Part shown: one piece after another, positions 39-48,924 of the stretch | Layout of the letters: each line of letters opens with the position of its first letter | Numbering within the stretch: the first letter of the stretch is position 1 | Translations under genes and position numbers: made by a program | The notes under the pieces: generated by a model | The model's input: only the letters and a program-made list of their open reading frames with translations | Told to the model about the DNA's origin: nothing | Databases searched by the model: none | NCBI GenBank assembly: GCA_963749445.1 | Contig: CAVVMJ010000003.1 | Coordinates: forward strand, 715-64,714 | Reading direction: 5' to 3' | Source of the DNA: an uncultured bacterium | Lineage (GTDB): Bacteria; Patescibacteriota; Doudnabacteria; UBA920 | Length of the DNA: 64,000 bases

Positions 39-770
39 GTGGTTGACCTTATCAACGCCAACATCATTGAGGGCGTCCACCGCTCCGGCAGTCTAACCGC
101 CAAGTTTTTTACCAACACCTACAAAGATAATGTTCAGGCCGAGGACGCTCCCAGGGCCATTAAAGATTTTACCGCTTACAACAAAAAGGTCAACTGGCAT
201 TATTTTGGCAAAAAGACCGGCCAACTTAAGTATGTCTCGGTTATGGAACTCCAGCCCGTAAGTAAAAAGATTCATTTCCATACCGTGCTGTTTAACCAGC
301 CCTTTGTCCTGCAAAAAGACCTGCAAGACCTTTGGGGTTATGGGATTGTGGACATTCGTAAAATCTATGACCACAACTACGGTCAGTATATGGCTAAATA
401 CCTCGGCAAAAACTTTCGGGACTACCACGCCGCCGGTAAAAAACACTACTTCCGCTCCAGGGGCTTGGTTGAAGCCCAAATCCTTCGGCACGACGCTTCG
501 GTTTCGGACATTGCCGACCACTTGCCTGATTCTCTAATCCTGCACAAAATTCAGGGCATTAAGTTTCCGGTCTGGAACGGCTTTGAGTTTGTTGACCAGG
601 TTATGGACAAAACGGATTACAGCCTCAAGGGCTTCCCCCAAATCGTGGACTGGATTCAAGACACCATTGTCAATGTAAAGCAACATCCCCAGCCCCTGCG
701 GTTTAGCATTAGCCCCACGGACAGTCAAGCTCCAGCAGAGATGCCGCCTGATTATGATTTAGCATTTTAA
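39..770 (+). CDS. rolling-circle replication initiator (HUH endonuclease, Rep_1/pC194-like)
   Basis: HUH motif HFHTVLF is followed ~35 aa later by the catalytic Tyr motif GQYMAKYLGK (YxxKY), the motif order of RCR Rep proteins. An in-frame stop at 3-5 means the gene starts near 39. Confidence 0.55.
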   Translation: MVDLINANIIEGVHRSGSLTAKFFTNTYKDNVQAEDAPRAIKDFTAYNKKVNWHYFGKKTGQLKYVSVMELQPVSKKIHFHTVLFNQPFVLQKDLQDLWGYGIVDIRKIYDHNYGQYMAKYLGKNFRDYHAAGKKHYFRSRGLVEAQILRHDASVSDIADHLPDSLILHKIQGIKFPVWNGFEFVDQVMDKTDYSLKGFPQIVDWIQDTIVNVKQHPQPLRFSISPTDSQAPAEMPPDYDLAF

Positions 771-7022: not shown

Positions 7023-8204
7023 TCAAAAGTTATTTTTGATACTATCCCACAAATTTTCATCAATCTGCACGGTTTCACCGCGTTCAGCTGCAAGCTGTTT
7101 CAATAATTCTTTTTCTTTCCGTGATAACTTATTGGGCACAATCACGCGGACGGTAATTAACAGGTCGCCGCGGCGGGAGGGGTTGTGGATGTCCGGCACG
7201 CCGTGATTCTTAACTTTCATTACGGTGCCGCTTTGCGTACCGTTTGGAATTTTTAGTTCAATCTGCCCGTCCAAAGTTTTGACGATAATTTTTGCGCCCA
7301 GCGCGGCCTGGGTAAAACTTACGGGTAGTTCTTTAAGCAAATTGTTGCCGTCACGCGTAAATTCTTTATTCTCGCGCACGCGGATGGCCAAATATAAATC
7401 GCCGGGGCTGGAGCCGCGGTAGCCGGCCTCGCCTTCCCCGGCCACGCGGATTCTTTGGCCGTCGTCTATGCCGGCCGGAATTTTTACGGCAATGGTTTTC
7501 TCCTGTCTCAACGCGCCGCTCCCGCCGCAGGTGTGGCAGGGCGTTTCCGGCACTTTGCCCGTGCCCTCGCACCGGTCGCACGTGGTGCGGCTCTGGATTT
7601 GGCCAAAAATCGTGCGGCGCGTGGTGGCTATTTGTCCCTGGCCGTGGCACTTGGGGCAGGAGTTGATTTTAGACCCCGGTTCCGCACCGTTGCCGCCACA
7701 GGTTTTACAAACGTCTTTTTTTTCTAAAGTGATGGTTTTTTCCGCGCCGAACACCGCTTCCTCAAAATTTATGGTCAGCGACATTTCCAAATCTATGCCG
7801 CGGTTGCGCCTGCTTTCGCGCTGCCTTCTGCCGCCGAACATATCGCCAAAAATGTCTCCCAAATCAAATTCCACGCCGCCTTCGCCGCCAAAACCCCCAA
7901 AATCCCAGGCGGAGCCTGGTCCGCCTCCGGCGGAAAAACCCCCGAACGGATTTTGGCCCTGCTGATATTGATAACCTCCGTTTCGCGAGGCCTGGTCAAA
8001 CGTTTGCCCGTAAGTGTCGTACTGCTGCTTTTTTTCCGCGTTGCCCAGTACCTGATACGCCTCGTTAATTTCCTTAAACTTAGCCTCGTTGCCCTTATTT
8101 TTATCCGGATGATACTCGTGCGCCATCTTGCGGTAGGCGCGCTTAATCTCGTCGCCACTGGCGCCTTTGGAAACTCCTAAAATGTCGTAATAATTCTTAG
8201 CCAT
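7023..8204 (-). CDS. dnaJ: molecular chaperone DnaJ
   Basis: J domain MAKNYYDILGV...HPDKN, Gly/Phe-rich region, four CxxCxGxG zinc-finger repeats, C-terminal domains. Confidence 0.95.
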   Translation of the reverse strand: MAKNYYDILGVSKGASGDEIKRAYRKMAHEYHPDKNKGNEAKFKEINEAYQVLGNAEKKQQYDTYGQTFDQASRNGGYQYQQGQNPFGGFSAGGGPGSAWDFGGFGGEGGVEFDLGDIFGDMFGGRRQRESRRNRGIDLEMSLTINFEEAVFGAEKTITLEKKDVCKTCGGNGAEPGSKINSCPKCHGQGQIATTRRTIFGQIQSRTTCDRCEGTGKVPETPCHTCGGSGALRQEKTIAVKIPAGIDDGQRIRVAGEGEAGYRGSSPGDLYLAIRVRENKEFTRDGNNLLKELPVSFTQAALGAKIIVKTLDGQIELKIPNGTQSGTVMKVKNHGVPDIHNPSRRGDLLITVRVIVPNKLSRKEKELLKQLAAERGETVQIDENLWDSIKNNF

Positions 8205-8275
8205 TCAATGTCAATTTAAAATTACGGATTACGCATTACGGATTAATTCGTAATCCGCAATAAAAAAATTGTAAC

Positions 8276-8777: not shown

Positions 8778-10664
8778 TTATTTTGGAACCTCTTTATAAT
8801 CCGCGTCCACGGTGCCTTTATCGGCTCCGGGCTGATTATTATCCGGCGACGGATTCGCGCCCGGCTGGCTTCCCACTTCACCCTTCCCACTTCCCCCTTG
8901 CCCCTCGTACATCGCCGCCCCCACCTTTTGGATGGCGGACGACAATTCATCAACCGCTTTTTTTATGGCATCCACGTCGTCCTTGTCTTTTATCGCTTTT
9001 AACGCGGCGATTTTGTCTTCAACCGTTTTTTTATCTTCGGCCTTTGCTTTATCGCCCGCGTCTTTAATTGTCTTTTCGGATACGCTGATGAGAGTATCAG
9101 CTTGGTTTCTCATATCCACGGTTTCCTTGCGCTTCCTGTCCTCGGACGCGTGCGCTTCGGCTTCCTTTTTCATCCTTTCCACATCGTCCTTGCTCAAATT
9201 GGAAGACCCCTGAATGGTAATGTGCTGCTCTTTGTTCGTGGCTTTGTCCTTGGCTTTGACTGTTAAAATTCCGTTGGCGTCAATGTCAAACGTCACTTCT
9301 ATTTGCGGGATGCCGCGCGGCGCCGGCGGAATGCCGTCCAAAATAAACTGGCCCAAAGATTTGTTGTCGCGCGCGAATTCCCGCTCGCCCTGCAGCACGT
9401 GGACTTCCACCGAAGTTTGGTTGTCGCCGGCCGTGGAAAATGTTTGTGACTTTGATGTTGGGATGGTGGTGTTACGATCGATGAGAGGCGTGCGAACTCC
9501 GCCCAAAGTTTCCAGACCCAAAGTCAAAGGCGTAACATCCAGCAGTAAAATTTCCTTGCCTGCCACGTCGCCGCCCAAAATTCCGGCCTGGATGGCCGCG
9601 CCCTTGGCCACGGCTTCCATGGGGTCAATGCCGCCCTCCACCTGTTTGCCAATGTAATCTTCCACAAACTTTTTTACGCTCGGCATCCGCGTGGGCCCGC
9701 CGATTAAAATAATTTTATCGATGTTGGCCGGGGTCAATTTGGCGTCTGAAATGGCCTGCTCCACCGGCCTGCGCATCCGCTCAATGAGCGGCTTAATCAA
9801 TTCTTCCAGTTTGGCGCGCGTGATTTTTATTTGGAGATGTTTGGGCCCGTTTTGGTCAGCCGTGATGAACGGCAAGTTAATGTCGGTTTCCATTGTGGTG
9901 GAAAGTTCAATTTTGGCTTTTTCCGCCGCTTCCCGCACGCGGTTCATGGCCATTTTGTCGTTGTTCAAGTCCACACCGCTGGAATTCTTAAAATCGCCGA
10001 CGATATAATCTATCAGCACTTTGTCCATGTCCTTGCCGCCGAGCTGCGTATCGCCGCTCGTAGACTTGACTTCAAACGTGGCCTGGTTGTCCACTTCGCT
10101 AAAATCCATAATCGTTACGTCCAAAGTGCCGCCGCCCAAATCAAACACCAAAATTTTCTGATCCCGGGCCGTGCCTTTGTCCAAACCGTACGCGAACGCC
10201 GCGGCCGTGGGCTCGTTGATTACGCGCACCACTTCCAGTCCCGCGATTTCGCCCGCGTTTTTGGTGGCCTGCCTTTGCGCGTCGTCAAAATACGCCGGCA
10301 CGGTAATGACCGCCTTAGCCACCGGCTCGCCCAAAAACGTTTCCGCGTCTTTTTTGATTTTTTGGAGGATGAAAGCGGAAATTTGCTCCGGCGTGTAATC
10401 TTTGCCGTTAACGTGATATTTAAAACTGGTCCCCATTTTGCGCTTGGCCTCAAACACCGTGCCCTCCGGATTAGTCACGGCCTGTCTGCGCGCCGGCTCA
10501 CCCACTAACAATTGGCCTTCCTTGGTGAAAGCTACGTAAGACGGAAAAGCCTTCCCGCCCAAACTCGCGCCCTCGGCCGAAGGAATAATCACCGGCTTCC
10601 CCGCCTCCATAACACTCGCGGCAGAGTTTGATGTTCCTAAGTCTATCCCTATAATTTTTGACAT
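8778..10664 (-). CDS. dnaK: molecular chaperone DnaK (Hsp70)
   Basis: [18 protein letters not shown] and [11 protein letters not shown] signatures; full-length 628 aa. Confidence 0.97.
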
Positions 10665-11188: not shown

Positions 11189-11302
11189 GTCATTCCCGCG
11201 AAGGCGAGAATCATTTAATTTGTCATTGCGAGTGCAGCCGAAGCAATCTTTTTATAGATTGCCGCGTCGGCCAGATAAAGCCCTGGCCTCCTCGCAATGA
11301 CA
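11189..11302. repeat. palindromic MITE-like repeat, family A (1.5 copies)
   Basis: gtcattcccgcgaaggcgagaatca followed by gtcattgcgagtgcagccgaagcaatc...gattgccgcgtcggcc...ggcctcctcgcaatgac. Near-identical copies at 11667-11753 and inverted at 55877-55963, with a partial copy at 24715-24770. Confidence 0.8.
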
Positions 11303-11357
11303 CAAAAAAGTAGATTCAGCGTCCATTCAGCGTACCTATCAGCGACAAATCAGCGGC

Positions 11358-11651: not shown

Positions 11652-11666
11652 TTGTTCCTTTTTTCT

Positions 11667-11753
11667 GTCATTGCGAGTGCAGCCGAAGCAATCTTTATCT
11701 TAGGATGAGATTGCCGCGTCGGCCGGATAAAGCCCCGGCCTCCTCACAATGAC
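11667..11753. repeat. palindromic MITE-like repeat, family A
   Basis: Same sequence as 11223-11301, in direct orientation. Confidence 0.8.
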
Positions 11754-11758
11754 ACTTA

Positions 11759-12445
11759 TTATTCTAATTTTTTCTTGCTAATAACAACCTGTGAAGGCCG
11801 AATGACCTTACCATTTAATTCAAACCCGGTTTGGACTTCCTCTATAATAATCCCGTCGTCCTGGTCGCTTTCCGTTTCGCGGATGGCTTCGTGGAAGTTT
11901 GGGTCGAATTTTTTGCCGATGGCTTCTATTTTCCTGACGCCCAGTTCCCCAAGCGCTTTGTCCAGCTGCATAACTATACCGTCTACGCCCATTTGCCAGT
12001 TGGCGTATTTTTTCCTGAATTCCTCTGCTCTAACCCCCTCCCCGCCCTGCGGGCGGTACTCCCCCTCAGCAAGGGGGAGAGGCTCCGCACTTATCTCTGC
12101 ATTTTCCGCGGAGCTCCCCTCCTTTTCAAGGAGGGGTGTCCCGCCTTGGCGGGACGGGGTGGTTGGAGTATATTCAGGCAGATGTTTAAGCGCCTGCTCC
12201 AGCGAATCAATCGTGGGCAACAATTTTACCACCGTAACTTCCTTGGCAAATTCCAAAAGTTCCCTGTTTTCCGCTTCCTTGCGGCGCTTATAGTTTTCAA
12301 AATCCGCGGCCGCGCGCTTCCAGCCGTTCATGGCCGAATCCAAATCGGTTTGGAGTTTTTCCAAAGTTATGTTGCCGTTTTGACTGTCATCGGCCGGCTG
12401 ATGGTTATCGGTTTGCTGGTTTTCTTCTGACATAATTGGAAACAA
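11759..12445 (-). CDS. grpE: nucleotide exchange factor GrpE (with an internal GC-rich palindromic insertion)
   Basis: GrpE N-terminal helix WKRAAADFENYKRRKEAE and C-terminal domain. A ~145-bp GC-rich multi-hairpin insertion at 12030-12175 stays in frame (PSRQGGTPLLEKEGSSAENAEISAEPLPLAEGEYRPQGGEG). Confidence 0.85.
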   Translation of the reverse strand: MFPIMSEENQQTDNHQPADDSQNGNITLEKLQTDLDSAMNGWKRAAADFENYKRRKEAENRELLEFAKEVTVVKLLPTIDSLEQALKHLPEYTPTTPSRQGGTPLLEKEGSSAENAEISAEPLPLAEGEYRPQGGEGVRAEEFRKKYANWQMGVDGIVMQLDKALGELGVRKIEAIGKKFDPNFHEAIRETESDQDDGIIIEEVQTGFELNGKVIRPSQVVISKKKLE

Positions 12446-12494
12446 TTACGCATTGCGGATTGCGGATTGCGAATTCGTAATGCGAAATCCGTAG

Positions 12495-13250
12495 TTATCT
12501 AATAATAAAAAGTAGCGCTATTGCCGCTCCGCCGCCCAATAATTTGCTGATATACTCCATTAACGATAAGTTCTTTTCGTACTTCATGGACTTCGGGCCG
12601 ATTAACCCAATCACTCCCCTTTTACCGCTGGGCAATTTGAGGCCGCTGACAATCATAGAATAGTCGGAATTTTTTGACAGCTTAAGCTCTTTGCCAATAA
12701 ACGTTTCCGGTTTGGTGGATGAGGAATAATCCTGCATCATTTTTTCCGCGTACTGGTCAATGTTGTCAAAAAACTGCGCGATTTCCTTGGCGTCTTCGGC
12801 CGCCAAAGCGGGGTTGTCCACGATATTGGACAAGCCGGTGGTGGAGGTTTCTTCCGGGAACAGGGCAAAACTGGCTTGTTGGGAATGATCTGATAATAGT
12901 TTGGCAATCCGGCGTCCCATTTCCGAATGCGCGATTTGTAGCTTAAACAATTCCCGCTTCAGCGCCTCCTGCTCTTTTAAAGTCAGGCGCACGCGGTCCA
13001 TAAGTTCGTTTACAAAAAACCGGAAGCCCTTGTCCGTAGGCACGCGGCCGGAGGAGGTGTACGGCTGGGCAATAAAACCCAACTTTTCCAAAACCTGCAT
13101 TTCGTTGCGGATGGTAGCCGGGCTGACGTCAAAGTTATACTTGCCCGCCAAATCCTGGCTGGCCACGGGCTGGCAATTGTCGCAGTTTTCCTTGACAATG
13201 GCCGCGAGAATTCTGGCTTGGCGAGGATTAATATCGCTATTTTCCGTCAT
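12495..13250 (-). CDS. hrcA: heat-inducible transcription repressor HrcA
   Basis: Winged-helix N-terminus with SPATIRNEMQVLEKLGF...SSGRVPTDKG, C-terminal GVIGLIGPKSMKYEKNLSLMEYISKLL, and a CIRCE element upstream. Confidence 0.85.
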   Translation of the reverse strand: MTENSDINPRQARILAAIVKENCDNCQPVASQDLAGKYNFDVSPATIRNEMQVLEKLGFIAQPYTSSGRVPTDKGFRFFVNELMDRVRLTLKEQEALKRELFKLQIAHSEMGRRIAKLLSDHSQQASFALFPEETSTTGLSNIVDNPALAAEDAKEIAQFFDNIDQYAEKMMQDYSSSTKPETFIGKELKLSKNSDYSMIVSGLKLPSGKRGVIGLIGPKSMKYEKNLSLMEYISKLLGGGAAIALLFIIR

Positions 13251-13320
13251 AAAATTTATAGATTATTCCTTTTATCTGCGCCATCTGTTTTCATCCGCGT
13301 ATCTGTGATTAATAATACTA

Positions 13321-13347
13321 TTAGCACTCTAACCTGTCAAGTGATAA
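13321..13347. promoter_or_regulatory. CIRCE-like inverted repeat (HrcA operator)
   Basis: TTAGCACTC-N9-aAGTGaTAA against consensus TTAGCACTC-N9-GAGTGCTAA, ~70 bp upstream of hrcA. Confidence 0.6.
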
Positions 13348-13489: not shown

Positions 13490-14026
13490 ATGGACAAAAC
13501 AAAATTAAATCAAATTACCAATATACTGCCGGTTTCCCCTAACTTTATTGAACGGCGGATTTACTCTATACGCGACCGGCAAGTTATGCTGGACAGCGAT
13601 TTGGCGGATTTGTATCAAGTAAAAACAAAAAACCTTAACAAAGCCATTAAGCGCAACCCGGATCGGTTTCCTCAAGATTTCATGTTTCAGCTCACTAAAA
13701 AAGAAGCGGGTAACTTGAGGTTCCAATTTGGAACCTCAAGTTACGGCGGCAGGCGTTATTTACCCTATGCTTTTAGCGAGTACGGAGTGGTTATGTTGTC
13801 TTCGGTTTTAAATAGCCATCGGGCCATACAAATGAACATCGCGATAGTCAGAGCCTTTATCAAACTTCGGGAAATGCTTGAGGAATATAAAGGCTTATCC
13901 AAACAAGTCGCCAAAATTAAAGGCGTCCAGGATTTACATACCAAAGTGTTGGTAAAAGTCGTAAAAAATTTAAAAAGAATCAGTACTCCCGTAAGCACCA
14001 CCGCGATTGGCTTTAGGGTTAATTAA
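13490..14026 (+). CDS. ORF6N-domain protein (phage antirepressor-like)
   Basis: IRDRQVMLDSDLADLYQVKTKNLNKAIKRNPDRFPQDFMFQLT matches the ORF6N signature. Confidence 0.7.
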   Translation: MDKTKLNQITNILPVSPNFIERRIYSIRDRQVMLDSDLADLYQVKTKNLNKAIKRNPDRFPQDFMFQLTKKEAGNLRFQFGTSSYGGRRYLPYAFSEYGVVMLSSVLNSHRAIQMNIAIVRAFIKLREMLEEYKGLSKQVAKIKGVQDLHTKVLVKVVKNLKRISTPVSTTAIGFRVN

Positions 14027-14037
14027 AAATAAAAAAT

Positions 14038-15222
14038 ATGAAAACCAAACACATTCTATTTGCGGCGATGGTAATTTTTGCCGCGCCAATGGTTAGCCAG
14101 GCCGCTGCCGCGCATAGTTCCCGCGTCTGCTCTGTGGCCAAAAAGACCGGACTGGCCAGCTGCAACGCCCATGTAGTGACGGACAATAAGGGGAAATTTT
14201 TGGTCAGCGCATCGCCGCAGGGTTTTAGCCCGACGCAACTGCGGAGCGCTTATGGTCTTTCCGGAAAAGCCAATAAAAATCCCATAGTCGCCATTGTGGA
14301 TGCTTACGATGACCCAACGCTAAAAAATGACCTGGATGTTTATAGCCGGCAGTTTGGCTTGCCGGTGTTGGCCGATTGCAAAACTGCCGTCGTCAAATCG
14401 CCAATCCCCTGCTTCCAAAAACTCAGCCAGCGGGGAACATCCGCTTTACCAAAACCAAACGGCGGTTGGGCGATGGAAATTGCGCTGGATGTGGAAACCG
14501 TGCATGCTGCGTGCGAAAACTGCTCTATATTATTGGTGGAAGCGACTTCGCCGAATATGAATAATTTGATGCTGGCCGTGGATACCGCAGTCAGAGCCGG
14601 CGCCGTTGCGGTTTCCAATTCTTACGGCGGTCCGGAATTCGCGCAGGAAACGCAATTTGACAGCCATTTCAATCACCCGGGCGTGGCTTTTACCGTCTCT
14701 TCCGGCGATAGCGGCTATGGCGTGGAATATCCCGCAGCTTCACCTTATGTTACGGCTGTGGGCGGTACTTCCCTATATTTAGGCGCTGATGGAAAATACA
14801 AAAACGAAGACGCCTGGAGCGGCGCCGGTTCGGGATGTTCGCAGTTTGAATCAAAACCCGCTTGGCAGACAGACGCGAAGTGTCCCGGACGGACGGTAGC
14901 CGATGTTTCAGCCGTGGCCGACCCCCAAACCGGCATAGCCATATACACTACCACCAGCACCAAAAACCAAAAAGGCTGGTTTACCGCGGGCGGTACATCT
15001 CTATCCGCGCCGCTCATTGCCGCAGTCTACGCGCTGGCCGGAAATTTACCCGCTGATAAAAACGCCAACAGCCTGCCCTACAGCTTAGGGTCAAAATCCA
15101 ATTTACACGATGTTGTCGGCGGCTCAAACGGGAACTGTAGTCCGGCGTATTTATGCACGGGCAAAACCAAATACGACGGCCCCACCGGCCTGGGCAGTCC
15201 CAAAGGTACGGGCGCGTTTTGA
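14038..15222 (+). CDS. secreted sedolisin-like (S53) serine peptidase
   Basis: Signal peptide; AIVDAYDDPTLKNDLDVYSRQFGLP, EIALDVE, SSGDSGYG and GGTSLSAPLIAAV motifs (Ser-Glu-Asp triad arrangement). Confidence 0.7.
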   Translation: MKTKHILFAAMVIFAAPMVSQAAAAHSSRVCSVAKKTGLASCNAHVVTDNKGKFLVSASPQGFSPTQLRSAYGLSGKANKNPIVAIVDAYDDPTLKNDLDVYSRQFGLPVLADCKTAVVKSPIPCFQKLSQRGTSALPKPNGGWAMEIALDVETVHAACENCSILLVEATSPNMNNLMLAVDTAVRAGAVAVSNSYGGPEFAQETQFDSHFNHPGVAFTVSSGDSGYGVEYPAASPYVTAVGGTSLYLGADGKYKNEDAWSGAGSGCSQFESKPAWQTDAKCPGRTVADVSAVADPQTGIAIYTTTSTKNQKGWFTAGGTSLSAPLIAAVYALAGNLPADKNANSLPYSLGSKSNLHDVVGGSNGNCSPAYLCTGKTKYDGPTGLGSPKGTGAF

Positions 15223-16294: not shown

Positions 16295-18559
16295 ATGAAA
16301 CCTTCTAAAAACGTCCGCGTAGTTGTCGTAATTTTATCACTCGCGATGACAGTTGCCCTGGCTAGTATGCCGCCAAAAACCAACGCAGCCCAAGCGTGCG
16401 CCACAACACTTTATCCCGGGGACAGCATCCAGGCGGCCGTGGACTGTAACACAGCCGGCACGACTTTTACCTTGACTCCCGGGGTCTACCGCGGACAGTC
16501 CGTCGCGCCAAAAAATAACGACGTGTTTGTGGGCCAGCCCGGCGCGATTTTAAACGGCTCCAAACTCTTAACTAATTTTACCCAACAAAACGGCATGTGG
16601 CTGGCCACGGGCCAAAGCCGGGTCGATCAGCCTCACGGAGATTGCGATGCCACCCATCCGGGCTGCAACTATCCCGAAGACTTATATTTTGACAGCATCC
16701 CCCTGCAACATATGGCCAACTTAAGCGACGTAGCTGCCGGCAAATGGTATTTTGATTACGCGGCGGGAATAGTTTATTTGGGCAATAACCCGGCCGGACA
16801 CACGGTTGAGCTCGGCGCCACAAAGACGGCCTTTGGCGGCGCGGCCACGGGCGTGACCATCCGCAATTTAATAATTGAAAAATACGCCAACAACGCCCAA
16901 ATAGGCGCCGTGGGCGGCGATAAGTGGGGTTCGGACAAGCCGTTCAACTGGACTTTGCAAAACAACGAAATCCGCCTGAACCACGGCGCCGGCATCAGCC
17001 TCTTGGACGGGGCGGAAGTAAACGGCAACTATATTCACGACAACGGCGAAATAGGCTACTCGCTCCAGGGAAAAAATATTGTTTTTGAAAACAACAATCT
17101 GGCCTATAACAACTACGCCGGATTTGATTGCGGCTGGGAATGCGGCGGGGGCAAGGCGGCGTTTACCAATAATCTGACTTTCCGCAATAATTATTCCCAC
17201 GACAATTTCGGACCCGGCTTTTGGACCGACACCGACAATGTTAATACCACGTACAGCGGCAATGTCATAGCCAACAACCAACTGGAAGGCATTGAGTACG
17301 AAATCAGCTTTTCGGGTAAAATTACCAACAACACTTTTTTGAACAACGGAAGCGGCCGGTCGTATGGCGTGCCGTGGGGCACGCAAATCATGCTTTATAA
17401 TTCCCAGAATGTGGAAATTTCGGGCAATACGCTGGTGGTGTCGCCGAGCTTGGGCAACGGCATAGGTTTAATGGATACCCCGCGCGGCTCCTCCGCCACT
17501 TTAGGCGCTTATTTGCTTGCTAACAACAGTATTCACGATAACGACATGACTTACCAAGGATCTTCAGGAATGACAGGAGTCCAAAAAACCGACAGCAACT
17601 TTACCGTCAGCGGGACTATTGATCCCACAAATGTGTTTTATAACAACCATTATCACGCTTCGGACATAACCGCCAACCATTTTTATTGGAACGGCGCCAT
17701 GTCCTTTAGCGCTTTCCAGCAAAAGGGGCAGGAAACCCACGGCACTATGGATACAACCATTTCCGCGCACCCGTTGGTCATTCCCACCGGAGTCAGCAAT
17801 AACCCCACAGCCGCGGGCGCTGTTGCCGCGGTTCCCGTTGCGCCCCGCGCCGGCCAGCTGATTAACATTAACGGAACGGTCTACCTTGTTGCCAACACCG
17901 GCCTCTATGGTTTTCCCGATGCCGCGACTTTTTATTCCTGGGGGTATAAGTTTACCGATATTGTTACGGCCAACAGCGCGGAAACGGCTTTAAGTATGAT
18001 CGGATTAGTGCCAACCGAACAAGCCGGATGCTCCAGTCCGCTGAATCAGATTAACGGCAGTTGCGGCCAGGCCGGTTCAACCACCACGCCCAGAGTCGGG
18101 CAATTAGTCAACATAGGCAATACTGTCTATCTTGTTGCCAACACCGGCCTGTACGGCTTTCCCGATGCCCCGACATTTTATTCCTGGGGATTTAGCTTTA
18201 GCCAGATAGTGCCTGCCAACAGCGCGGAATCGGCTTTAACCATGATCGGATTAGTGCCAACGGAACAATCCGGATGTTCCAGCCCGATAAATCAAATAAA
18301 CGGCACCTGCGCTGTTTCTCAGGTCACCGCTAGGCCCGGCCAAATAATAAGCATCAACAAAACCGTTTACCTGGTTTCCAGCACCGGCCTGTACGGCTTT
18401 CCCGATGCCGCAACATTTTACTCCTGGGGCTTTACCTTTGACAATATTGTCGCTGCCAACAGCGCCGAATCCGCTTTGCCAATGATAGGGATAGTCCCAA
18501 CCAAACAAGCCGCCTGCACCCACCCCCTTGACCAAATCAGCGGCTCCTGCGGTTCTTGA
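16295..18559 (+). CDS. secreted right-handed beta-helix (pectin-lyase-fold) repeat protein with a 3x C-terminal ~80-aa repeat
   Basis: Signal peptide; many NNxxxxN beta-helix repeats; three tandem C-terminal repeats (G-Q-L-I/V-N-I-x-x-T-V-Y-L-V...GLYGFPDA.TFYSWG) at ~17830-18540. Confidence 0.55.
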   Translation: MKPSKNVRVVVVILSLAMTVALASMPPKTNAAQACATTLYPGDSIQAAVDCNTAGTTFTLTPGVYRGQSVAPKNNDVFVGQPGAILNGSKLLTNFTQQNGMWLATGQSRVDQPHGDCDATHPGCNYPEDLYFDSIPLQHMANLSDVAAGKWYFDYAAGIVYLGNNPAGHTVELGATKTAFGGAATGVTIRNLIIEKYANNAQIGAVGGDKWGSDKPFNWTLQNNEIRLNHGAGISLLDGAEVNGNYIHDNGEIGYSLQGKNIVFENNNLAYNNYAGFDCGWECGGGKAAFTNNLTFRNNYSHDNFGPGFWTDTDNVNTTYSGNVIANNQLEGIEYEISFSGKITNNTFLNNGSGRSYGVPWGTQIMLYNSQNVEISGNTLVVSPSLGNGIGLMDTPRGSSATLGAYLLANNSIHDNDMTYQGSSGMTGVQKTDSNFTVSGTIDPTNVFYNNHYHASDITANHFYWNGAMSFSAFQQKGQETHGTMDTTISAHPLVIPTGVSNNPTAAGAVAAVPVAPRAGQLININGTVYLVANTGLYGFPDAATFYSWGYKFTDIVTANSAETALSMIGLVPTEQAGCSSPLNQINGSCGQAGSTTTPRVGQLVNIGNTVYLVANTGLYGFPDAPTFYSWGFSFSQIVPANSAESALTMIGLVPTEQSGCSSPINQINGTCAVSQVTARPGQIISINKTVYLVSSTGLYGFPDAATFYSWGFTFDNIVAANSAESALPMIGIVPTKQAACTHPLDQISGSCGS

Positions 18560-24643: not shown

Positions 24644-24889
24644 ATTAAAGGCTGGTTGATGAAAGTATTTTAGCAGATGATAAAGCGGGAATCAAGGGCG
24701 ATAATCATCGGTAAGGGATTGCCGCGTCGCCCCTCGGATGCACTCAGGGCTCCTCGCAATGACGAACGAAATTTGGCAGGCCAATCCACCTCCGCTAAGG
24801 CTACGGCGGACAAGGTGGCCTGTACTGCATCGGGCGGATGGTATCCGCCCCTACATCCGCGCAATCTGCGACATCCGCGTATCCGCAAA

Positions 24890-27795
24890 CTACAATACCT
24901 TTTTCAAATACTGCCCCGTAAAACTCGCTTTGACTTTGACAATGTCTTCGGGCGTGCCCGCGGCCACGAGCTCGCCGCCCTTGTCCCCGCCTTCGGGGCC
25001 AAGGTCTATGACCCAGTCCGCGGTTTTGATAATGTCCAAATTGTGCTCAATCACCACCACGGTGTTGCCCTTTTCCACCAGCTTGTTTAAAACCAAAATC
25101 AATCTTTTAATGTCGGCAAAATGCAGGCCCGTGGTCGGCTCATCCAGCAAATACAAAGTCCGGCCCGTGGCCGCGCGCGAAAGTTCGGTCGCCAGTTTAA
25201 TCCTTTGCGCTTCCCCGCCGCTCAAAGTGGTGGCGTTCTGGCCCAAACACATATAGCCCAAGCCCACCTGGGACAGGGTTTCCAGTTTTTTGTGGATTTG
25301 CGGCAAATTGGCAAAAAACACTTTGGCGTCATCTACTGTCATTTCCAAGACGTCGGAAATATTTTTTTCCTTGTAATGGATTTCCAAAGCCTGTTGGTTG
25401 TAGCGCTTGCCGTGGCACTCGTCGCAGGTAATGTACACATCCGGCAAAAAATTCATTTCCACCTGGATGACGCCGTCGCCCGCGCATTTTTCGCACCGCC
25501 CGCCGCGCACGTTAAAACTGAACCGGCCGGCCCGGTAACCGCGCATCCGCGCCTCGCGCGTGTCGGAAAACAAATCGCGGATCGGCGTAAACAAACCCGT
25601 GTACGTGGCCGGATTGGAACGCGGCGTGCGGCCGATTGGCGATTGGTCAATATTTATAATTTTATCCAAATGTTCCAGCCCCAGAATTTTTTTGTGCTTG
25701 CCCGGCTCTTCCTTGCTGTTAAAAAAATAGTGGTTCAGCGCTTTGGCCAAAATTTCGTTGAGCAAAGTGGATTTGCCGCTGCCGGACACGCCGGTGACGC
25801 AAACAAATTTGCCCAGCGGAATATCCGCGTTAATATTTTTAAGGTTAAATTCCTCGGCTCCCACAATGCTGAGTTTTCTGCCGTTACCCGGGCGGCGCCG
25901 CTTGGGCACTTCTATAAATTCCTTGCCTGCCAAATACTGGCCGGTTAAACTTTTGGCGCTTTTTTGGATTTGCGGCCGGCGTGCCTTGGGCCACCAGTTC
26001 CCCGCCGTGCTTACCCGCGCCCGGCCCAATGTCCACCACCCAGTCCGCCTCGCGGATGGTTTCCTCGTCGTGCTCCACTACGATTACAGTATTACCCAAG
26101 TCGCGCAAATCTTTTAAAGTTTGCAGCAACCGACGGTTGTCGCGCTGATGCAGGCCAATGGAAGGTTCATCCAATATATAGAGCACACCGGTGAGCCCGC
26201 TGCCGATTTGCGTGGCCAGGCGGATGCGCTGCGCTTCCCCGCCGCACAAAGTATCGGCCGTTCGGTCTAAAGACAAATAAGCCAGCCCCACATTCAGCAA
26301 GAACGAAAGCCGCGCATTAATTTCCTTTAAAATCTGTTTGGATATAGTTTGGTCTTTAACGCTTAAGACTTTGGGCAAATTTTTAAAAAATTCCGCGGTT
26401 TGGTCTATGGACAGGTGGGAAACATCCACTATCCCCTCACCGCCCACGGTTACGACCAAAACTTCGGGCTTGAGGCGTTTGCCCAAACAAACCTCGCACT
26501 GGCGGACGCGCATATAATTTTCGATTTCGCTGCGCATAAATTCGGAATCGGTTTCGCTGTAGCGGCGCTGCAAGTTGGGAATGACGCCCTCAAAAGCGGT
26601 ATTCATTTCAAACTGGCCGTCGCGGGTGGAAAATTCGCCGGCCACTTTGACTTTTTTCCCGCCCGTGCCGTACAAAACCACGTCAATAATTTTTTTGGGG
26701 AGATCCTTAACCGGCGTGTTCACGGAAAATCCGTATTCTTTGGCCACGGCTTCTAAAATTCGCGAGTACCAAGACAGGCGCGAAGTGGTTTTGCTCCACG
26801 GGCGGACGGCGCCTTCGGCCAGGGTTAATTTTTGGTTGGGCATAACCAAGTCCGGCTCCACCGTGAGCTTGGTGCCCAGGCCCTTGCACTCCGGGCAGGC
26901 GCCGTGCGGGCTGTTAAAACTAAAATCGCGCGGGTCCAGCTCGTTAAGCGACATATGCCCGTCAGGACAGGCAAAATTTTGGGAGAGGGTGATTTCTTGT
27001 CCCCCTGTAGCGGCATGCCTCGGCATGCCGTCTTGTTTAGGCACGCCACGGCGTGCCTCTACATCAGATGATACCATTTTAATGGCAATCGCCATCCCAT
27101 CGCCCAAATCCAAAGCCTTTTCCAAACTCTCGGCCAACCGCGCCCGGTCTTTTTGGGAAATGATAATTCTGTCCACCACCACGTCTATGGAATGTTTTTT
27201 TTGCTTGTCCAAATTTAGCCCCTGGGCCTCGTTCAAATCCATAACCGTACCGTCCACGCGGACGCGGGCAAAACCTGCTTTTTTGATTTGTTCAAAAATA
27301 TGCTTGTGCTCGCCTTTTTGGTCGCGCACAAACGGCGCCAGGAGCATCAAGCCGGTGCCTTCGGGCAAACTCGAGCAGCTGCTCCACCATGGCCTGCGGG
27401 GTCTGGCCGGAAATTTTTTTACCGCAAACCGGGCAGTGCGGAATGCCGATGCGAGCGTACAATAATCTTAAATAGTCATAAATTTCCGTGACCGTGCCCA
27501 CGGTTGAGCGCGGATTGTGGCTGGCGGATTTTTGGTCAATGGATATTGCCGGGCTCAAACCCTCTATTTTATCCACATCAGGTTTATCCATAAGGCCGAT
27601 GAACTGGCGCGCGTAGGCGGAAAGCGATTCCACATAGCGGCGCTGGCCTTCGGCGTAAATGGTGTCAAACGCCAAAGACGACTTGCCACTGCCCGACAAG
27701 CCGGTTAACACCACTAGCTTGTTGCGCGGCAAATCCACGTCCAAATTTTTTAAATTGTGCATCCGCGCCCCGCGGATGCTTATAATGTCCTTCAT
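24890..27795 (-). CDS. uvrA: excinuclease ABC subunit A (UvrA), broken into three ORFs by two apparent homopolymer frameshifts (~27367 and ~25965), with an in-frame repeat insertion
   Basis: Three consecutive overlapping ORFs carry UvrA N-terminus ([34 protein letters not shown]), middle (Zn-finger, ABC signature) and second ABC domain ([10 protein letters not shown]...[12 protein letters not shown]). The element at 27004-27066 encodes [20 protein letters not shown]. Confidence 0.85.
27004..27066. repeat. palindromic repeat family C inserted in frame in uvrA
   Basis: ggcacgccgtggcgtgcc and ggcatgcc(c)cggcatgcc hairpins. The same element sits in frame in uvrC at 30079-30141. Confidence 0.8.
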
Positions 27796-29166: not shown

Positions 29167-31131
29167 ATGACCCAAATCCAAAATCTCTCCACCAGCGGCG
29201 GATCCGCCTTCGGCGGAAAATCCAAAATCTCAAATATCCCAAAACAGCCCGGCGTTTACCAGTTTTTGGATAAAGACGGCGGGGTTATTTATATTGGCAA
29301 GGCCAAAAATTTGCGCTCGCGCGTGGGGCAATATTTTAACGGCAGCGATGAGCGGCCCCAAATCCCCCACCTGATGAATGAGGCGGCGGATTTTAGTTAT
29401 ACCGTTGTCAATAACGAACTGGAAAGTTTGTATTTGGAAAACACTTTGATAAAACAGTATCTGCCGAAATATAACATTTTACTGCGCGACGACAAAAACT
29501 ACGCGTTCATTAAAATAGATTACTCAACCGAGATACCGCAGATTGGCTACGCAAGAAAAATAGAAAATCCGGGACTTAGCCCTAAACCCTTAGCCCTTAG
29601 CCCTAAATACTTTGGTCCCTACACCGCCGCCTACAAAATCCGCGACACACTTCATTTAATGCGCAAAATTTTTCCCTACTGCTCGGCGACAAAAGTTTCG
29701 GGAAAACCGTGTTTCCACTATCACCTGCACCGCTGCCCGGGCGTGTGCATTGGGAAAATCACGCTTGACGAGTACCGGCTGACCTTAAAAAAAATTGAGG
29801 ATTTTTTGGCCGGCAATACGGCAAAAGTCGGCAAACAGCTGCAAAGCGAAATGCGCACTGCCGCCTCCAAAAAACAGTTTGAAAAAGCCGCCCGTTTGCG
29901 CGACCAACTGAATTCGCTAAAGCTTTTACAGGAACGCCAAACCGTAATTTTAGCCAAAAAAGTGGACTGGGATATTGTGTCTTTGGCGGCTTCCGATGGT
30001 TATGCCTGCGTTAACCTGTTTAAAGTGCGCGAAGGCAAATTGCAGGACAAAGAAGATTTTGTGTACGAGATGGGCTCCGATGTAGAGGCACGCCGTGGCG
30101 TGCCTGAACAAAATGACGGCATGCCCCGGCATGCCGCTACAGAATATACATTAACATTACAAACCTTCCTTGAACAGTACTATTCGGAAGCTTCCAGCGT
30201 TCCTAAAATTATTTATACCCAATATCAGGTCCGGGAATATCGGCTCATAGAAAAACTGATCCGCTCGCGTTATGACCGCGCAGTCAAAATCATCACGCCC
30301 CAAAAAGGCAAAGCCAAAGGGTTAATCAAGCTCGGAACAGCCAACGCGCAGGAATACCTGACGAAATGGCTTTCAGATCAAGCCGGGCATTTGGACAAAA
30401 TCAACCGCGCGCTGGAAGGCCTTAAAAACGCGCTTTGTCTGGAAAAAATCCCCGAGCGGATAGAGTGTTACGACATCAGCAATATCCAGGGCACCAACGC
30501 CGTGGGCAGCATGGTGGTGTTTAAAAACGGCCTGCCGGCCAAATCCGAATACCGAAAATTTCGGATAAAAACCAAGCACACGCCTGACGATTTTGCGATG
30601 ATGCGCGAGATATTGCAAAGAAGATTTAGGCACAATTACGAATTACGCATTACGGATTCTGAAAATTCGCAATCCGCAATCCGCAATCCGCAATCTTACA
30701 ATTGGCCTCTCCCCGACCTCATTGTCATCGACGGCGGAAAAGGACAACTCTCCGCGGCGCTAGGAGCGCTGCGGAAATTTCCAATTTCCAATTTCCAATT
30801 TCCAATTATTGGCTTGGCCAAAAGGATTGAAGAAATCTTCGTTCCGGGCAAATCCGAACCCATTATTTTGCCGCACGACGATCCCGCACTCCAACTCCTC
30901 CAGCGCCTGCGCGACGAGACGCACCGTTTTGGAATTATTTTTCATCGCCAGCTCCGCTCCAAGCAGGCCGTCCGGTCAGCGCTTGATAACATCCCAGGGT
31001 TAGGCCCCAAAACCAAAAAACTGCTCAAAGCCAAATTCGGCACCGTAGCCAGCATCCGGAAAGCCGATTTAAATGATCTTGCCTCGGTTGTTGGGGATAA
31101 AATAGCGCGGAATATAAAATCAAATGTATGA
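29167..31131 (+). CDS. uvrC: excinuclease ABC subunit C (UvrC), carrying in-frame repeat insertions
   Basis: GIY-YIG N-terminus GVYQFLDKDGGVIYIGKAKNLRSRV, UvrBC domain, endonuclease V-like and HhH C-terminus. Contains repeat C (30079-30141, [21 protein letters not shown]), ATCCG-type repeats (30640-30700) and a (TTTCCAA)4 microsatellite (30778-30807). Confidence 0.93.
   Translation: MTQIQNLSTSGGSAFGGKSKISNIPKQPGVYQFLDKDGGVIYIGKAKNLRSRVGQYFNGSDERPQIPHLMNEAADFSYTVVNNELESLYLENTLIKQYLPKYNILLRDDKNYAFIKIDYSTEIPQIGYARKIENPGLSPKPLALSPKYFGPYTAAYKIRDTLHLMRKIFPYCSATKVSGKPCFHYHLHRCPGVCIGKITLDEYRLTLKKIEDFLAGNTAKVGKQLQSEMRTAASKKQFEKAARLRDQLNSLKLLQERQTVILAKKVDWDIVSLAASDGYACVNLFKVREGKLQDKEDFVYEMGSDVEARRGVPEQNDGMPRHAATEYTLTLQTFLEQYYSEASSVPKIIYTQYQVREYRLIEKLIRSRYDRAVKIITPQKGKAKGLIKLGTANAQEYLTKWLSDQAGHLDKINRALEGLKNALCLEKIPERIECYDISNIQGTNAVGSMVVFKNGLPAKSEYRKFRIKTKHTPDDFAMMREILQRRFRHNYELRITDSENSQSAIRNPQSYNWPLPDLIVIDGGKGQLSAALGALRKFPISNFQFPIIGLAKRIEEIFVPGKSEPIILPHDDPALQLLQRLRDETHRFGIIFHRQLRSKQAVRSALDNIPGLGPKTKKLLKAKFGTVASIRKADLNDLASVVGDKIARNIKSNV
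30079..30141. repeat. palindromic repeat family C inserted in frame in uvrC
   Basis: Reverse complement of 27004-27066. Because uvrA and uvrC are on opposite strands, both genes translate it to the same peptide. Confidence 0.8.
30778..30807 (+). repeat. (TTTCCAA)x4 microsatellite inside uvrC (encodes ISNFQFPI)
   Basis: Direct 7-bp tandem repeat; note it is not a multiple of 3 per unit. Confidence 0.85.
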
Positions 31132-33233: not shown

Positions 33234-33395
33234 AAGCCGCGGATCTACTCGCGGATGGCGACGCGGATCACACGCGGAGTGTAGGGGCGGATAGTATCCG
33301 CCCGCGATGGATTGATGTTTGGGTGACAAAATGATAAAATGATTTATGGTTTGCCCAGGTGGCGGAACTTGGTATATTTACCCCGCACAGTTGGG

Positions 33396-38731: not shown

Positions 38732-40727
38732 GCACCGCGACTTTCTTTTTCCCGCTTAACTTATAAATATTTTCGGCTTCCGTGCTCACCACTTTTGTCT
38801 TTCTGCCGTTGCCGCGCAGTTCCTGATAAAGAGATTTAAAAGTATGCCCGTCGTAATCCCAATCCACCGCCCAATAGTCTATAAGCACAGCAAAATTATT
38901 TTTTATCAACAACATAAGTTCAGTGCGCGACTCGTCCGCCTTTTTACCGCTGCCCAAAGGAAAATCTTCTACAATATAATTTTCTATTTTAATTTTCAGT
39001 TTTAACCCTTCAATTTCCGGTTTGGCAATTTTTAAATATGGCTTATTGAAAAACACCACTTTACCAACAAGCGGCTCCAAGTCGTCCTCGGTTTTTGCCT
39101 GTTTTAGATACTCGTAAATATCCGGCGGAATTTGTTTTGGGATAATTTCCAATTTAGTTTTTGCCGCTTTTTTTCTTTCGTTCAACAGTTCATCAAAATT
39201 GTATTCGTAATCCCAGCCCAAAAGAGTCAAATTCGCGAAACCTCCGCCCTGTAAATTTTCCGCTTCCTTGGCCAATTCTTCCGCCTTATGCGCCGCAATC
39301 GGCCTGTCCGGATAGCCGCAATACACCAATTCCATTTTGCCGTCCTCGGATTTTTTTACGCCCAAATCCTTGCGGTTTTCCATAATTTCCGCGCCGTAAA
39401 GCTTTAACACGATTTTTTGCATCTCATAAATCCGCCCTCCTCCCAAATAAATCATCTCCCTCTGATAATTCCCAATATTCTCCACCAAAAACGGTTTTGA
39501 TTTTTGTTCCACCAGTCTGCCACGCGCGACTTGAATACCAACTTTCCCTAGCTCACATCCAATCCATCGACGGTTTAAATTTTCAGCTACTGATATCGTT
39601 GTTCCTGAACCCAAGAAAAAATCTGCAACGATTCCATTTTCAGGGCACGACGCTTCAATTATTCTTTGCAAAAGTTTTTTTGGTTTCTGAGTTTGATATT
39701 CTATATATTCGGGCATTGCTGGATAAACTTGCGTAATCCTTGCCTCATCACTATCTATCCACGACCATACATCATCCATCTTTCTTCCTTCGTCAGCATA
39801 ATAACGATTTGCGTTATTGTTGCCGCTCATTCGATATTTCCTACCCTCTTCATCTGTAAACGGATAAATGGATAAGTCCTTAACCGGAACACGCACAGGG
39901 TTAAAATATCTGTTATCTCCTTTTGAATAACGAAAAATCATGTTGTGTTTTCGAGCAAAGTCTTTTTCAGGAGCGGTCCCAGCTTGAAAATGCCAAATTA
40001 TCTGATTCCTAAAATTTTCCTCTCCAAAAACCTCATCCATCATCACTTTTACATAATGCCCAACGTGCCAGTCCAAATGCGCGTAAATACTGCCATCTTC
40101 GGCCAAAAGGCGTTTCATTAGTTGCAAACGCGGGTAAAGCATATCCAAATAGCTGTCTGTGCCGCCAGCCCAGGTGTCTTTGTAGGCCAAGCGTTCTATT
40201 ACGCTCGGCTCTTTTACCAATTCCAAATCCGCCGATGTTTCAGAAACATCAGCCAGTTTGATTTTGTGCGAATAGTCCGCCTTGCTGTCAAACGGCGGAT
40301 CAATGTAAATTAAATTTATTTTGCCTTCGTACCCCTGGTTTAACAGTGCCTGCATTGCCAATAAATTGTCGCCCCAAATTAGGCGGTTCATTTTTTGCTT
40401 GTCCAATTCTTCTTCCCCGATTTTGCCGTCTGTAAAAGACAAAGGCAACTGGCCTCTGTGCTCGGGATTTGGCACCACCACTTCCGCGGTCTGGAATTCA
40501 ATATCCTTGGGGTTAGGCGCGCGCTTGGGTTTGGTATCCCAAACCAGCCGGGCCGAATCCCTTTTCCTGTTAGTATTCATTTGTTGTAGCTGAGGATTTA
40601 GTGCAGCTGGAAAACAAAAAGGGCCTCCCAACCGCGAGCAACACCTTTCGATGTTACTGCGTGCTTGCGCACGCACCTCAGCTACGAGTGCGGTTAAGAG
40701 ACCGTCCTTATGTAGCTGAGGTTTCAA
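38676..40727 (-). CDS. mod: type III R-M Mod subunit (adenine-specific DNA methyltransferase)
   Basis: INLIYIDPPFDSKADY (motif IV) and C-terminal FFLGSGTTISVAENLNRRWIGCEL (motif I). Overlaps res by 56 nt. Confidence 0.85.
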   Translation of the reverse strand: MKPQLHKDGLLTALVAEVRAQARSNIERCCSRLGGPFCFPAALNPQLQQMNTNRKRDSARLVWDTKPKRAPNPKDIEFQTAEVVVPNPEHRGQLPLSFTDGKIGEEELDKQKMNRLIWGDNLLAMQALLNQGYEGKINLIYIDPPFDSKADYSHKIKLADVSETSADLELVKEPSVIERLAYKDTWAGGTDSYLDMLYPRLQLMKRLLAEDGSIYAHLDWHVGHYVKVMMDEVFGEENFRNQIIWHFQAGTAPEKDFARKHNMIFRYSKGDNRYFNPVRVPVKDLSIYPFTDEEGRKYRMSGNNNANRYYADEGRKMDDVWSWIDSDEARITQVYPAMPEYIEYQTQKPKKLLQRIIEASCPENGIVADFFLGSGTTISVAENLNRRWIGCELGKVGIQVARGRLVEQKSKPFLVENIGNYQREMIYLGGGRIYEMQKIVLKLYGAEIMENRKDLGVKKSEDGKMELVYCGYPDRPIAAHKAEELAKEAENLQGGGFANLTLLGWDYEYNFDELLNERKKAAKTKLEIIPKQIPPDIYEYLKQAKTEDDLEPLVGKVVFFNKPYLKIAKPEIEGLKLKIKIENYIVEDFPLGSGKKADESRTELMLLIKNNFAVLIDYWAVDWDYDGHTFKSLYQELRGNGRKTKVVSTEAENIYKLSGKKKVAVRVVDIFGNDATKILEVEI

Positions 40728-40894
40728 CCATGTCCCGCCGAAGGCGGGGTTTAGGCTTTACCCGGGGTTTTACGCCCGGGGCAATATTCTCCGCCGGAGG
40801 CGGATCCGCCTTTGGTGGAAATTGTATTTTAATTATACTACAATTAAGCCAAAAATAAAACCGCCGGTTTTAAGCAAATTTTTTGCTTGCGCAG

Positions 40895-47327: not shown

Positions 47328-47448
47328 TTCTCGACTCCAACGGGTATCGCGTCTGCGTCAAGCTCAACTCGGATGGGCTCAACGTCAACAACGATCATCC
47401 GTCCTACGGCGACAACGACAACTTGTACGTCTGCGTTGCCCGGAAGTC
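47328..47448 (+). repeat. DGR template repeat (TR)
   Basis: 121 bp matching VR at 48950-49070 (minus strand). All 16 mismatches are A in the TR. Confidence 0.85.
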
Positions 47449-47461
47449 TCATCGTTTTTTA

Positions 47462-47495
47462 AATCAGACCTACCTTTTAAAAGGTAGGTCTGATT
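47462..47495. terminator. perfect 13-bp-stem hairpin (aatcagacctacc-ttttaaaa-ggtaggtctgatt)
   Basis: Lies between the TR and the 3' end of avd. Could be a bidirectional terminator or a DGR RNA structural element. Confidence 0.5.
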
Positions 47496-48843: not shown

Positions 48844-48924
48844 AAAAAATTTCGGGAAGGCTTCGCCAGAGGCGAAGCCTTGCTTTCAAGGCCTCAAAGC
48901 CTAAAGCTTCAGAGTTCCGAAGCT

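Follow-up and report, generated by a model that had tools for sequence, protein, structure and literature searches.

The grpE gene of an uncultured Doudnabacteria bacterium carries a cluster of GC-rich hairpins in frame within its coding sequence. The gene lies in a 64,000-nt stretch of contig CAVVMJ010000003.1 (assembly GCA_963749445.1, positions 715 to 64,714). This whole stretch is called the window here, and coordinates refer to it unless a related contig is named. An earlier note on this DNA had described a run of four hairpins inside the grpE open reading frame (ORF). All four were found where it had placed them, and two features that it had missed were added: a central hairpin, the fifth (12082-12114), and an outer stem. 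The features are listed below. Arms are given in gene orientation, followed for the four hairpins first described by the letters of the plus strand.

11759-12433, minus strand: coding sequence of grpE, which has its ATG at 12433 and encodes 224 aa; the span includes the stop codon (ORF list; Pfam GrpE, E=1.3e-35)
12026-12169, minus strand: inserted segment, 144 nt and 48 residues, in frame and stop-free, codons T89-A136, peptide TPTTPSRQGGTPLLEKEGSSAENAEISAEPLPLAEGEYRPQGGEGVRA (protein alignment A1 and DNA alignment A2)
12156-12168, minus strand: 5' arm of P1, the outer closing stem or terminal inverted repeat, CTCCAACCACCCC (RNA and DNA folds, RNAalifold)
12138-12155, minus strand: hairpin P2, GTCCCGCC aa GGCGGGAC; plus strand GTCCCGCCttGGCGGGAC
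12116-12136, minus strand: hairpin P3, CCCCTCCTT gaa AAGGAGGGG; plus strand CCCCTCCTTttcAAGGAGGGG
12082-12114, minus strand: central hairpin P4, GCTCCGC, 19-nt loop, GCGGAGC
12059-12079, minus strand: hairpin P5, CTCCCCCT tgctg AGGGGGAG; plus strand CTCCCCCTcagcaAGGGGGAG
12042-12056, minus strand: hairpin P6, CCGCCC gca GGGCGG; plus strand CCGCCCtgcGGGCGG
12030-12043, minus strand: 3' arm of P1, GGGGAGGGGGTTAG (RNA and DNA folds, RNAalifold)

The element lies 260 nt inside the coding sequence. The note had also reported about 48 in-frame residues without a stop and a sharply different composition, and both statements were borne out. Codons T89-A136 make up 48 residues, stop-free and within the grpE ORF. 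The GC content of 12030-12175 was 0.644; the remainder of grpE has 0.471 and the window as a whole 0.472. Predicted peptides spanning the insert would include QGGTPLLEK and EGSSAENAEISAEPLPLAEGEYR.

The five hairpins and the outer stem, which pairs 12030-12043 with 12156-12168, formed one closed, multi-branched fold. P2, P3, P5 and P6 are stem-loops of 15-21 nt, and the cluster is palindromic overall. P1 contained a single mismatch in the window copy, in the distal part of the stem. The arms of P3 resemble an anti-Shine-Dalgarno and a Shine-Dalgarno (SD) sequence. The minimum free energy of the RNA was -90.2 kcal/mol, compared with -65.0 +/- 4.4 in dinucleotide shuffles (z -5.8, reached by 0 of 200), and the DNA fold gave z -6.2 against such shuffles. 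When the same peptide was recoded synonymously 500 times, the natural fold stood at z -5.1, and at z -4.9 against GC-matched recodings. A z of about -5 against synonymous recodings indicates that the structure is carried by codon choice.

To place the insert in the protein, 40 related GrpE proteins were aligned (A1). Both flanks, ...LEQALKHxP(E/Q)Y and DFxxxYQNWQ, were highly conserved. The gap between them ranged from 7 to 64 residues, and 0 to about 60 extra residues were present at the insertion point. Residues 24-83 and 148-219 of the query aligned to residues 68-127 and 140-212 of the solved GrpE 4ANI, in which the site is a 12-residue loop; the query has about 52 extra residues relative to it. 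In E. coli GrpE (1DKG), the insertion point falls just after residue 114. AlphaFold predicted confident helices at 24-83 and 132-163, which we take to be the two helices that each monomer contributes to the GrpE four-helix bundle. The coil between them had a predicted local distance difference test score (pLDDT) of about 50. From this model, the insert is probably a disordered loop of 48 residues rich in Pro, Gly and Glu. The note had expected the insertion between the long N-terminal helix and the beta domain. An in-frame insertion was found as it proposed, but it falls in the turn that joins helix 24-83 to helix 132-163 and not at the beta-domain junction.

The reading frame was followed in fetched loci by tblastn of the flanks combined with a DNA pattern, independently of gene calling. 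The flanks were in the same frame in all 40 of the 40 Patescibacteria grpE loci, with insert lengths from -9 to +183 nt. Among the codon-aligned elements (11 of 12 checked), the grpE frame was the only one stop-free in all; the segment in the more diverged L168 was likewise open in this frame. The preservation of frame and openness across orthologs argues that the segment is read through, not spliced out or bypassed. Judged from the sequence, the insert would thus be translated.

The closest ortholog (P0002/L084), with flanks 90% and 88% identical, lacked the hairpin element and had instead a 13-codon heptamer repeat (CAGTGGN x3.5) at the insertion site. The claim of an in-frame insertion in grpE was thus upheld, as the number of extra residues varies at an exact point and the closest relative is without the element.

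At least 11 further Patescibacteria orthologs, more distant than L084, carried a homologous element, at the same codon and always in frame. Ortholog DNA with long inserts was collected for 11 (L081, L082, L086, L091 and L165-L171), partly through exact-protein look-ups. The P1-P6 architecture was common to 10 of these 11, in the order outer stem P1, P2, P3, P4, P5 and P6. P4 showed the greatest length variation among the orthologs, and P3 was lost in L170. A covariance model, R1, was built from 10 orthologous elements. It matched the window element in full (12023-12172, minus strand, 144 bits, E=3e-39), and L086 and L168, which are more diverged, matched it weakly. P1 of the orthologs paired ACCACCCC with GGGGAGGTGGT, in some extended to CTCCAACC with GGTTGGAG. 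An assembly artefact was ruled out by the identical architecture in independent assemblies. Carriers and non-carriers were interspersed on a neighbour-joining tree of the flanks only, which is of low resolution.

Heptamer tandem repeats occupied the insertion codon in the element-free orthologs L084, L007, L092, L010 and L006. The repeats at the site were CAGTGGN x3.5 in L084 and L007, GAATCAA x4 in L092 and GGGCTAA in L006, with GAATCAA and GAATTAA variants. The grpE insertion site is a general sink, or hotspot, for repeat DNA.

Conservation of the segment at the protein level had been named in the note as an observation that would speak against an insertion. The peptide was poorly conserved, and it was the palindromic structure that persisted across about a dozen orthologs. 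The structure was derived by RNAalifold from a MAFFT alignment of 10 sequences that was not fitted to any structure. Over the 35 predicted pairs, 97.7% of the cells were paired, versus 52-62% when the partners were slid by 1-3 columns. Changes on both sides occurred in 10 pairs and 32 cells, and the covariation score was reached by none of 500 column shuffles.

P1 (helix 1) was 100% paired in the 10 sequences. P2 (helix 2) was also 100% paired, with both-side changes in four of its six pairs and no one-sided change. P6 (helix 6), again 100% paired, had both-side changes in three of six pairs. In P5, a C-G pair was replaced by U-A in 5 of 10 sequences. The peptide encoded by P2 meanwhile took the forms PSRQGGT, PARQTGH, PSRSAGH, PSRQVGT, PSAGADT, PSANADT, PSLRDT and PSASGGH.

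Helices 1, 2 and 6 showed no one-sided (G-U or wobble) variation and many CG-to-GC flips, which cannot go through a G-U intermediate. Over 12 elements, 24 G-U pairs were counted in the sense strand and 44 in the antisense strand, of several hundred predicted pairs, and the folding energies of the two strands were alike. The scarcity of G-U pairs, the lack of strand bias and the CG-to-GC flips argue for true DNA inverted repeats and not for a structure selected on the mRNA strand. The sequences thus point to palindromy kept at the DNA level. Whole arms or hairpins may have been replaced, through conversion with other copies as donors or through a template switch from one arm to the other; stepwise compensation in the stems appears less likely.

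The note had proposed a search for the hairpin units elsewhere. Such units were not repeated in the 64-kb window, and module copies were found in one related genome, L082. Two additional intergenic copies of R1 type lay within the 20 kb of L082. One, at 14052-14116 of that contig, is downstream of dnaK and upstream of a DUF3467 gene (R1 match 13953-14213). The other, at 17056-17142, is upstream of a TrmB-like gene (R1 match 17048-17238). Both represent the half P4'-P5-P6-P1' in reverse orientation and retain the invariant GGAGTACC junction and the GGGGAGGTGGT end. A nested unit, GACTTGTCCGCC..GGCGGAAG, was present in the P6 loop of the L168 grpE element (10394-10453) and also in the L082 copy at 17056-17142. 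Nesting targeted to loops, or a composite unit that moves as one, is suggested by this. The intergenic copies and the common nested unit together indicate that the modules are not confined to grpE, and that they move or undergo conversion as units. Extra R1 copies outside grpE were not found in L086, L167 or L168. Scans of viral contigs returned nothing for the whole element, for the P5-P6-P1 half or for the palindromic repeat of uvrA and uvrC described below. No Rfam family came near threshold at the grpE element.

Sequences resembling expression signals accompanied both L082 copies. A hairpin-sequestered AGGAGGAG was located 12 nt upstream of the ATG of the TrmB-like gene (17100-17150), and a TATAAT immediately preceded the ACCACCTCCCC end of the other copy (14040-14150). 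The module family may supply or mask expression signals.

Two other genes of the window contained palindromic repeats in frame. The repeats were a dimer of repetitive extragenic palindromic (REP) type, tagged with GTAG, and a heptamer-based family:

27005-27068, minus strand: GTAG-tagged REP dimer, 64 nt, in frame in uvrA
30076-30142, plus strand: second copy of the uvrA REP dimer, in frame in uvrC
30634-30701, plus strand: heptamer-based palindromic repeat, in frame in uvrC, HNYELRITDSENSQSAIRNPQSYN

The units of the REP dimer were GTAGAGGCACGCC..GGCGTGCCT .. CGGCATGCC..GGCATGCCGCTAC. The two dimers had the same orientation and frame relative to their host genes and encoded nearly identical peptides. 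In uvrA, 26 residues were found where the solved UvrA 9gxk has three. The heptamer repeat added 24 residues between residues 80 and 82 of the solved UvrC 2nrt. Members of the heptamer family are built on ATTACGN or ATTGCGG, and further copies occur at 8220-8268, 12444-12495 and 51650-51703. The copy at 12444-12495 occupies the spacer between hrcA and grpE.

We interpreted the grpE element as a tolerated, translated palindromic repeat cluster, similar to REPs or to Rickettsia palindromic elements (RPEs), in a permissive loop of GrpE, with its hairpins kept perfect by DNA-level repeat dynamics. The probability of this reading was put at about 0.7. An RPE-like element, or one resembling REPs and bacterial interspersed mosaic elements (BIMEs), with a 13-nt outer inverted repeat around five hairpins, would have landed in the turn between helices 24-83 and 132-163. 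Being divisible by three in length and free of stops in the grpE frame, the element would leave the gene intact and would be transcribed and translated as a 48-residue Pro/Gly/Glu-rich loop. Since GrpE would tolerate this loop, the element would persist mainly as tolerated (selfish or neutral) DNA, and all that selection on grpE would preserve is the reading frame and its freedom from stops. The perfect Watson-Crick palindromes could arise through processes at the DNA level, either replacement or conversion by family copies or template switching between arms, with no need for selection on the peptide or on the mRNA fold. This picture was assembled from the insertion, the kept frame, the stem covariation, the lack of peptide conservation, the dispersed copies in a related genome and the sister cases in uvrA and uvrC. 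The mode of movement, the translation of the insert and the neutrality for GrpE are what we infer from them.

Several observations weigh against this interpretation. A second copy of the element was absent from the 64-kb window in the R1 search with filters off, in which the next-best match at another site scored 10 bits; searches with the hairpin units and the outer stem likewise gave no other copies in the window. The additional copies came from a single related contig, L082. Among 30 window ORFs scanned with Pfam, no REP-associated tyrosine transposase (RAYT) or IS200-like tyrosine transposase was present. No target-site duplication was recognisable and no direct repeat flanked the element; for this comparison a clean empty site is missing, the closest ortholog having another repeat at the site. 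The grpE modules have no canonical, unpaired tag of GTAG or CGTC. Between P5 and P6 runs an invariant GAGTACC, of which the GTAC junction is common to both, and P2 begins with CCCCGTC, but this GTC is base-paired with GAC. The element was held at one orthologous codon although the flanks are only 62-67% identical (A1), and such retention together with near-perfect stems could instead reflect selection of the structure for some function.

In-frame palindromic elements are known from Rickettsia as RPE-1 to RPE-10 (Ogata et al. 2000 Science, 2002 Genome Res, summarised in PMC10969869 and PMC3733652), and reviews regard them as in-frame palindromic insertion at its most extreme (PMC10969869). The grpE element resembles them as a palindromic element in the range of about 100-150 bp (144 nt here), in frame in a housekeeping gene in all carriers. 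It would likewise be read through as extra peptide where the protein fold tolerates it, in a bacterial host with a small genome. On the other hand, its host belongs to the Patescibacteria and not to the Alphaproteobacteria. RPE-1 occurs in many genes with one conserved peptide, whereas the grpE element was found in one genic host and as a single copy in 64 kb. An RPE is one long palindrome, in contrast to the closed cluster of short hairpins in grpE.

Intragenic REPs occur as units, dimers and clusters in ORFs and encode 20-30 and up to 43-82 aa (Di Nocera et al. 2013, PMC3733652). Repair genes, uvrABC among them, have a striking excess of intragenic REPs, and the R. conorii examples are RPE-4 and RPE-6 (PMC3733652). 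The survey covered phyla other than Patescibacteria. REPs and BIMEs are characterised by short, GC-rich, imperfect palindromes of 20-40 bp. The likeness to them lies in GC-rich stem-loops of 15-25 nt, grouped as dimers of opposite orientation or as clusters able to form larger folds, and perhaps in copies that are mostly intergenic with some within ORFs. The enrichment in uvrABC matches this window, where GTAG begins the dimers of uvrA and uvrC as well as the copies at 24831 and 33280. The grpE modules differ by the missing tag, the low local copy number and the lack of a RAYT among the 30 window ORFs scanned.

[quoted passage not shown] The P1 arms CTCCAACCACCCC and GGGGNGGTTGGAG, fully paired in the 10 sequences, would be the terminal inverted repeats of MITE type. 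The grpE element differs in that it shows no target-site duplication and has no known parent insertion sequence, a search for which covered the window ORFs, and in that the interior consists of independent hairpin modules.

Mitochondrial GC clusters can lie inside coding sequence. Those of yeast and fungi are likewise short GC-rich palindromic modules in an AT-richer genome and can nest (PMC4478555). They are organellar and eukaryotic, with unrelated sequences, and provide an analogy only.

By this comparison, the grpE element appears to work like an RPE or an intragenic REP cluster, of neither of which it is a demonstrated member. It is a known type of event in a new lineage, the candidate phyla radiation (CPR), and in a new host gene, with no new mechanism. 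No specific report of in-frame palindromes was found in the literature on CPR/Patescibacteria.

An unlikely but broader alternative is that the P1-P6 domain is an mRNA or single-stranded DNA structure selected at one grpE codon across a Patescibacteria clade. It could, for example, control translation or decay of the heat-shock operon through hairpins that mimic SD and anti-SD sequences, or be the site at which a hairpin element targeted to loops lands and repeatedly rebuilds a protein loop.

In the form restricted to a cis-acting mRNA structure, selection on the heat-shock operon transcript seemed quite unlikely. Such a structure could slow ribosomes, mask an internal SD-like AGGAGG or protect against RNase, and so tune the output of GrpE and DnaK. 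It would be favoured by the strong covariation and by an architecture that is kept at a single orthologous site. In each of P1, P3 and P5 an arm like CCUCC is paired with one like GGAGG, a CIRCE-like operator (a controlling inverted repeat of chaperone expression, described below) would make the operon stress-regulated, and one L082 intergenic copy puts AGGAGGAG 12 nt upstream of an ATG. However, the stems have no sense-strand preference and almost no G-U pairs, and their double changes include many CG-to-GC flips without wobble intermediates. The element is also missing from the closest ortholog and many others, occurs in reverse orientation in intergenic DNA of L082 and matches no Rfam family. 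At about -90 kcal/mol, moreover, the fold would be far too stable for the melting of an RNA thermometer. An RNA thermometer was also considered separately and rejected, given the absence of strand asymmetry, the few G-U pairs, the position 260 nt inside the coding sequence and the lack of an Rfam match. The terminator and promoter scan found no terminator-like site in the element and only weak consensus matches to promoters.

It seemed just as improbable that the loop is an adaptive protein feature. A flexible Pro/Gly/Glu-rich loop would then alter GrpE dimer behaviour, thermosensing or partner contacts, and the hairpins would be only a by-product of how it arose. In favour of this, the insert keeps the frame and has no stop in any case, it has been retained in many lineages, and its position is a structurally defined turn. 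The peptide, on the other hand, is poorly conserved, and only patterns dictated by the palindromes persist; base pairing constrains codon usage and not vice versa. About two thirds of the best 120 of 753 homologs are shorter than 195 aa, too short for a long insert, and the shorter GrpE proteins in A1 had little or no insert at the site. A search of the insert peptide against 1.84 billion representative proteins found nothing related outside GrpE; it returned two unrelated repeat proteins.

Very unlikely is the genesis of the palindromes in place, by replication slippage or template switching in an unstable, permissive loop and without any mobile or dispersed element. It would agree with the unrelated simple repeats at the same site in L084, L007, L092 and L006 and with the single copy in the window. 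It does not account for the modules, including the composite P6 with its nested unit, at unrelated intergenic sites of L082. The window's other palindromic families, moreover, plainly exist in several copies, those in uvrA and uvrC being identical.

An intervening element missing from the finished protein (intron-like RNA, intein or translational bypass), or a variable region of the diversity-generating retroelement (DGR) at 47.3-49.8 kb, could be suspected from a hypervariable, structured and compositionally distinct segment and from the presence of bAvd, a reverse transcriptase and a pair of template and variable repeats, but it is effectively refuted, as far as the sequences tell, by the frame and openness kept in every ortholog, which a removed or bypassed element would not need. 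An intron or translational bypass was rejected on this preserved frame, and an intein because 48 aa would be too short and intein blocks are lacking. The DGR was rejected because the window contains no template copy of the grpE segment and the DGR has its own repeat pair; the differences among orthologs, too, are paired stem changes and indels and not adenine-specific substitutions.

At least four housekeeping-gene sites were affected in this one 64-kb window: a single site each in grpE and uvrA, and two in uvrC. Such elements would enlarge and diversify surface loops of essential proteins. They may produce spurious low-complexity "domains" and hypothetical ORFs in metagenome annotation and can mislead marker-gene alignments and phylogenies. 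The grpE site offers a clean natural series on how palindromes stay perfect, with about a dozen diverged copies at one site, two-sided stem changes and nested modules. This series could help to tell gene conversion or template switching from selection.

The gene neighbourhood of grpE is a heat-shock cluster, hrcA-grpE-...-dnaK-dnaJ. Among the matches listed, the closest of 753 GrpE homologs were from Patescibacteria, mostly labelled Candidatus Doudnabacteria. The neighbouring genes are:

12495-13250: hrcA, upstream of grpE
8778-10664: dnaK, downstream of grpE
7023-8204: dnaJ, downstream of grpE

A CIRCE-like inverted repeat, TTATCACTT-N9-GAGTGCTAA, was present upstream of hrcA (about 13320-13346, minus strand). 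It overlapped the -35 box of a strong promoter-like site (TTGACA-17-TATTAT). This overlap suggests HrcA control of the operon that contains grpE.

Repeats of about 100 nt resembling MITEs, with terminal inverted repeats GTCATTGCGAG / CTCGCAATGAC, were found at 11211-11306, 11656-11763 and 55867-55972, with a partial copy at 24747-24776. One copy begins directly after the grpE stop codon. A small palindromic family, GGCGGATCCGCCTTCGGCGGAAAA, had members at 29186-29219, 40786-40821 and 7903-7936 and supplies the residues SGGSAFGGK to the N-terminal extension of uvrC. In dnaJ, the 'GGCGGATCCGCC' family match (7903-7936) was not accepted as an insertion, as it lies in a G/F-rich stretch (GGFSAGGG) and may be coincidental. 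A further GTAG-tagged REP, TGTAGGGGCGGATagtATCCGCCC, had copies at 24831-24855 and 33280-33304.

The uvrA gene (24890-27795, minus strand) was split into three overlapping ORFs by two frameshifts. One was an extra T in GAGTTTGCCC near 27345, and the second was near 25990-26000. The split uvrA could be a pseudogene or a sequencing error.

The ORF at 39-770 (plus strand) matched Pfam REP_ORF2-G2P, presumably a rolling-circle replication initiator of HUH type. It was the sole enzyme seen in the window that might act on single-stranded DNA hairpins, and a link between it and the repeats is pure speculation.

The DGR spans 47328-49779. It comprises bAvd (47470-47847, minus strand), the reverse transcriptase (47848-48843, plus strand), the template repeat (47328-47448) and a variable repeat (48950-49070) inside the ORF at 48925-49779 (minus strand). 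All 15 mismatches between the two repeats (15/15) fell at template adenines. A LOOT RNA (Rfam RF03000) was matched at 40640-40757 on the minus strand with 57 bits, above the gathering score, and adjoins a copy of the small palindromic repeat.

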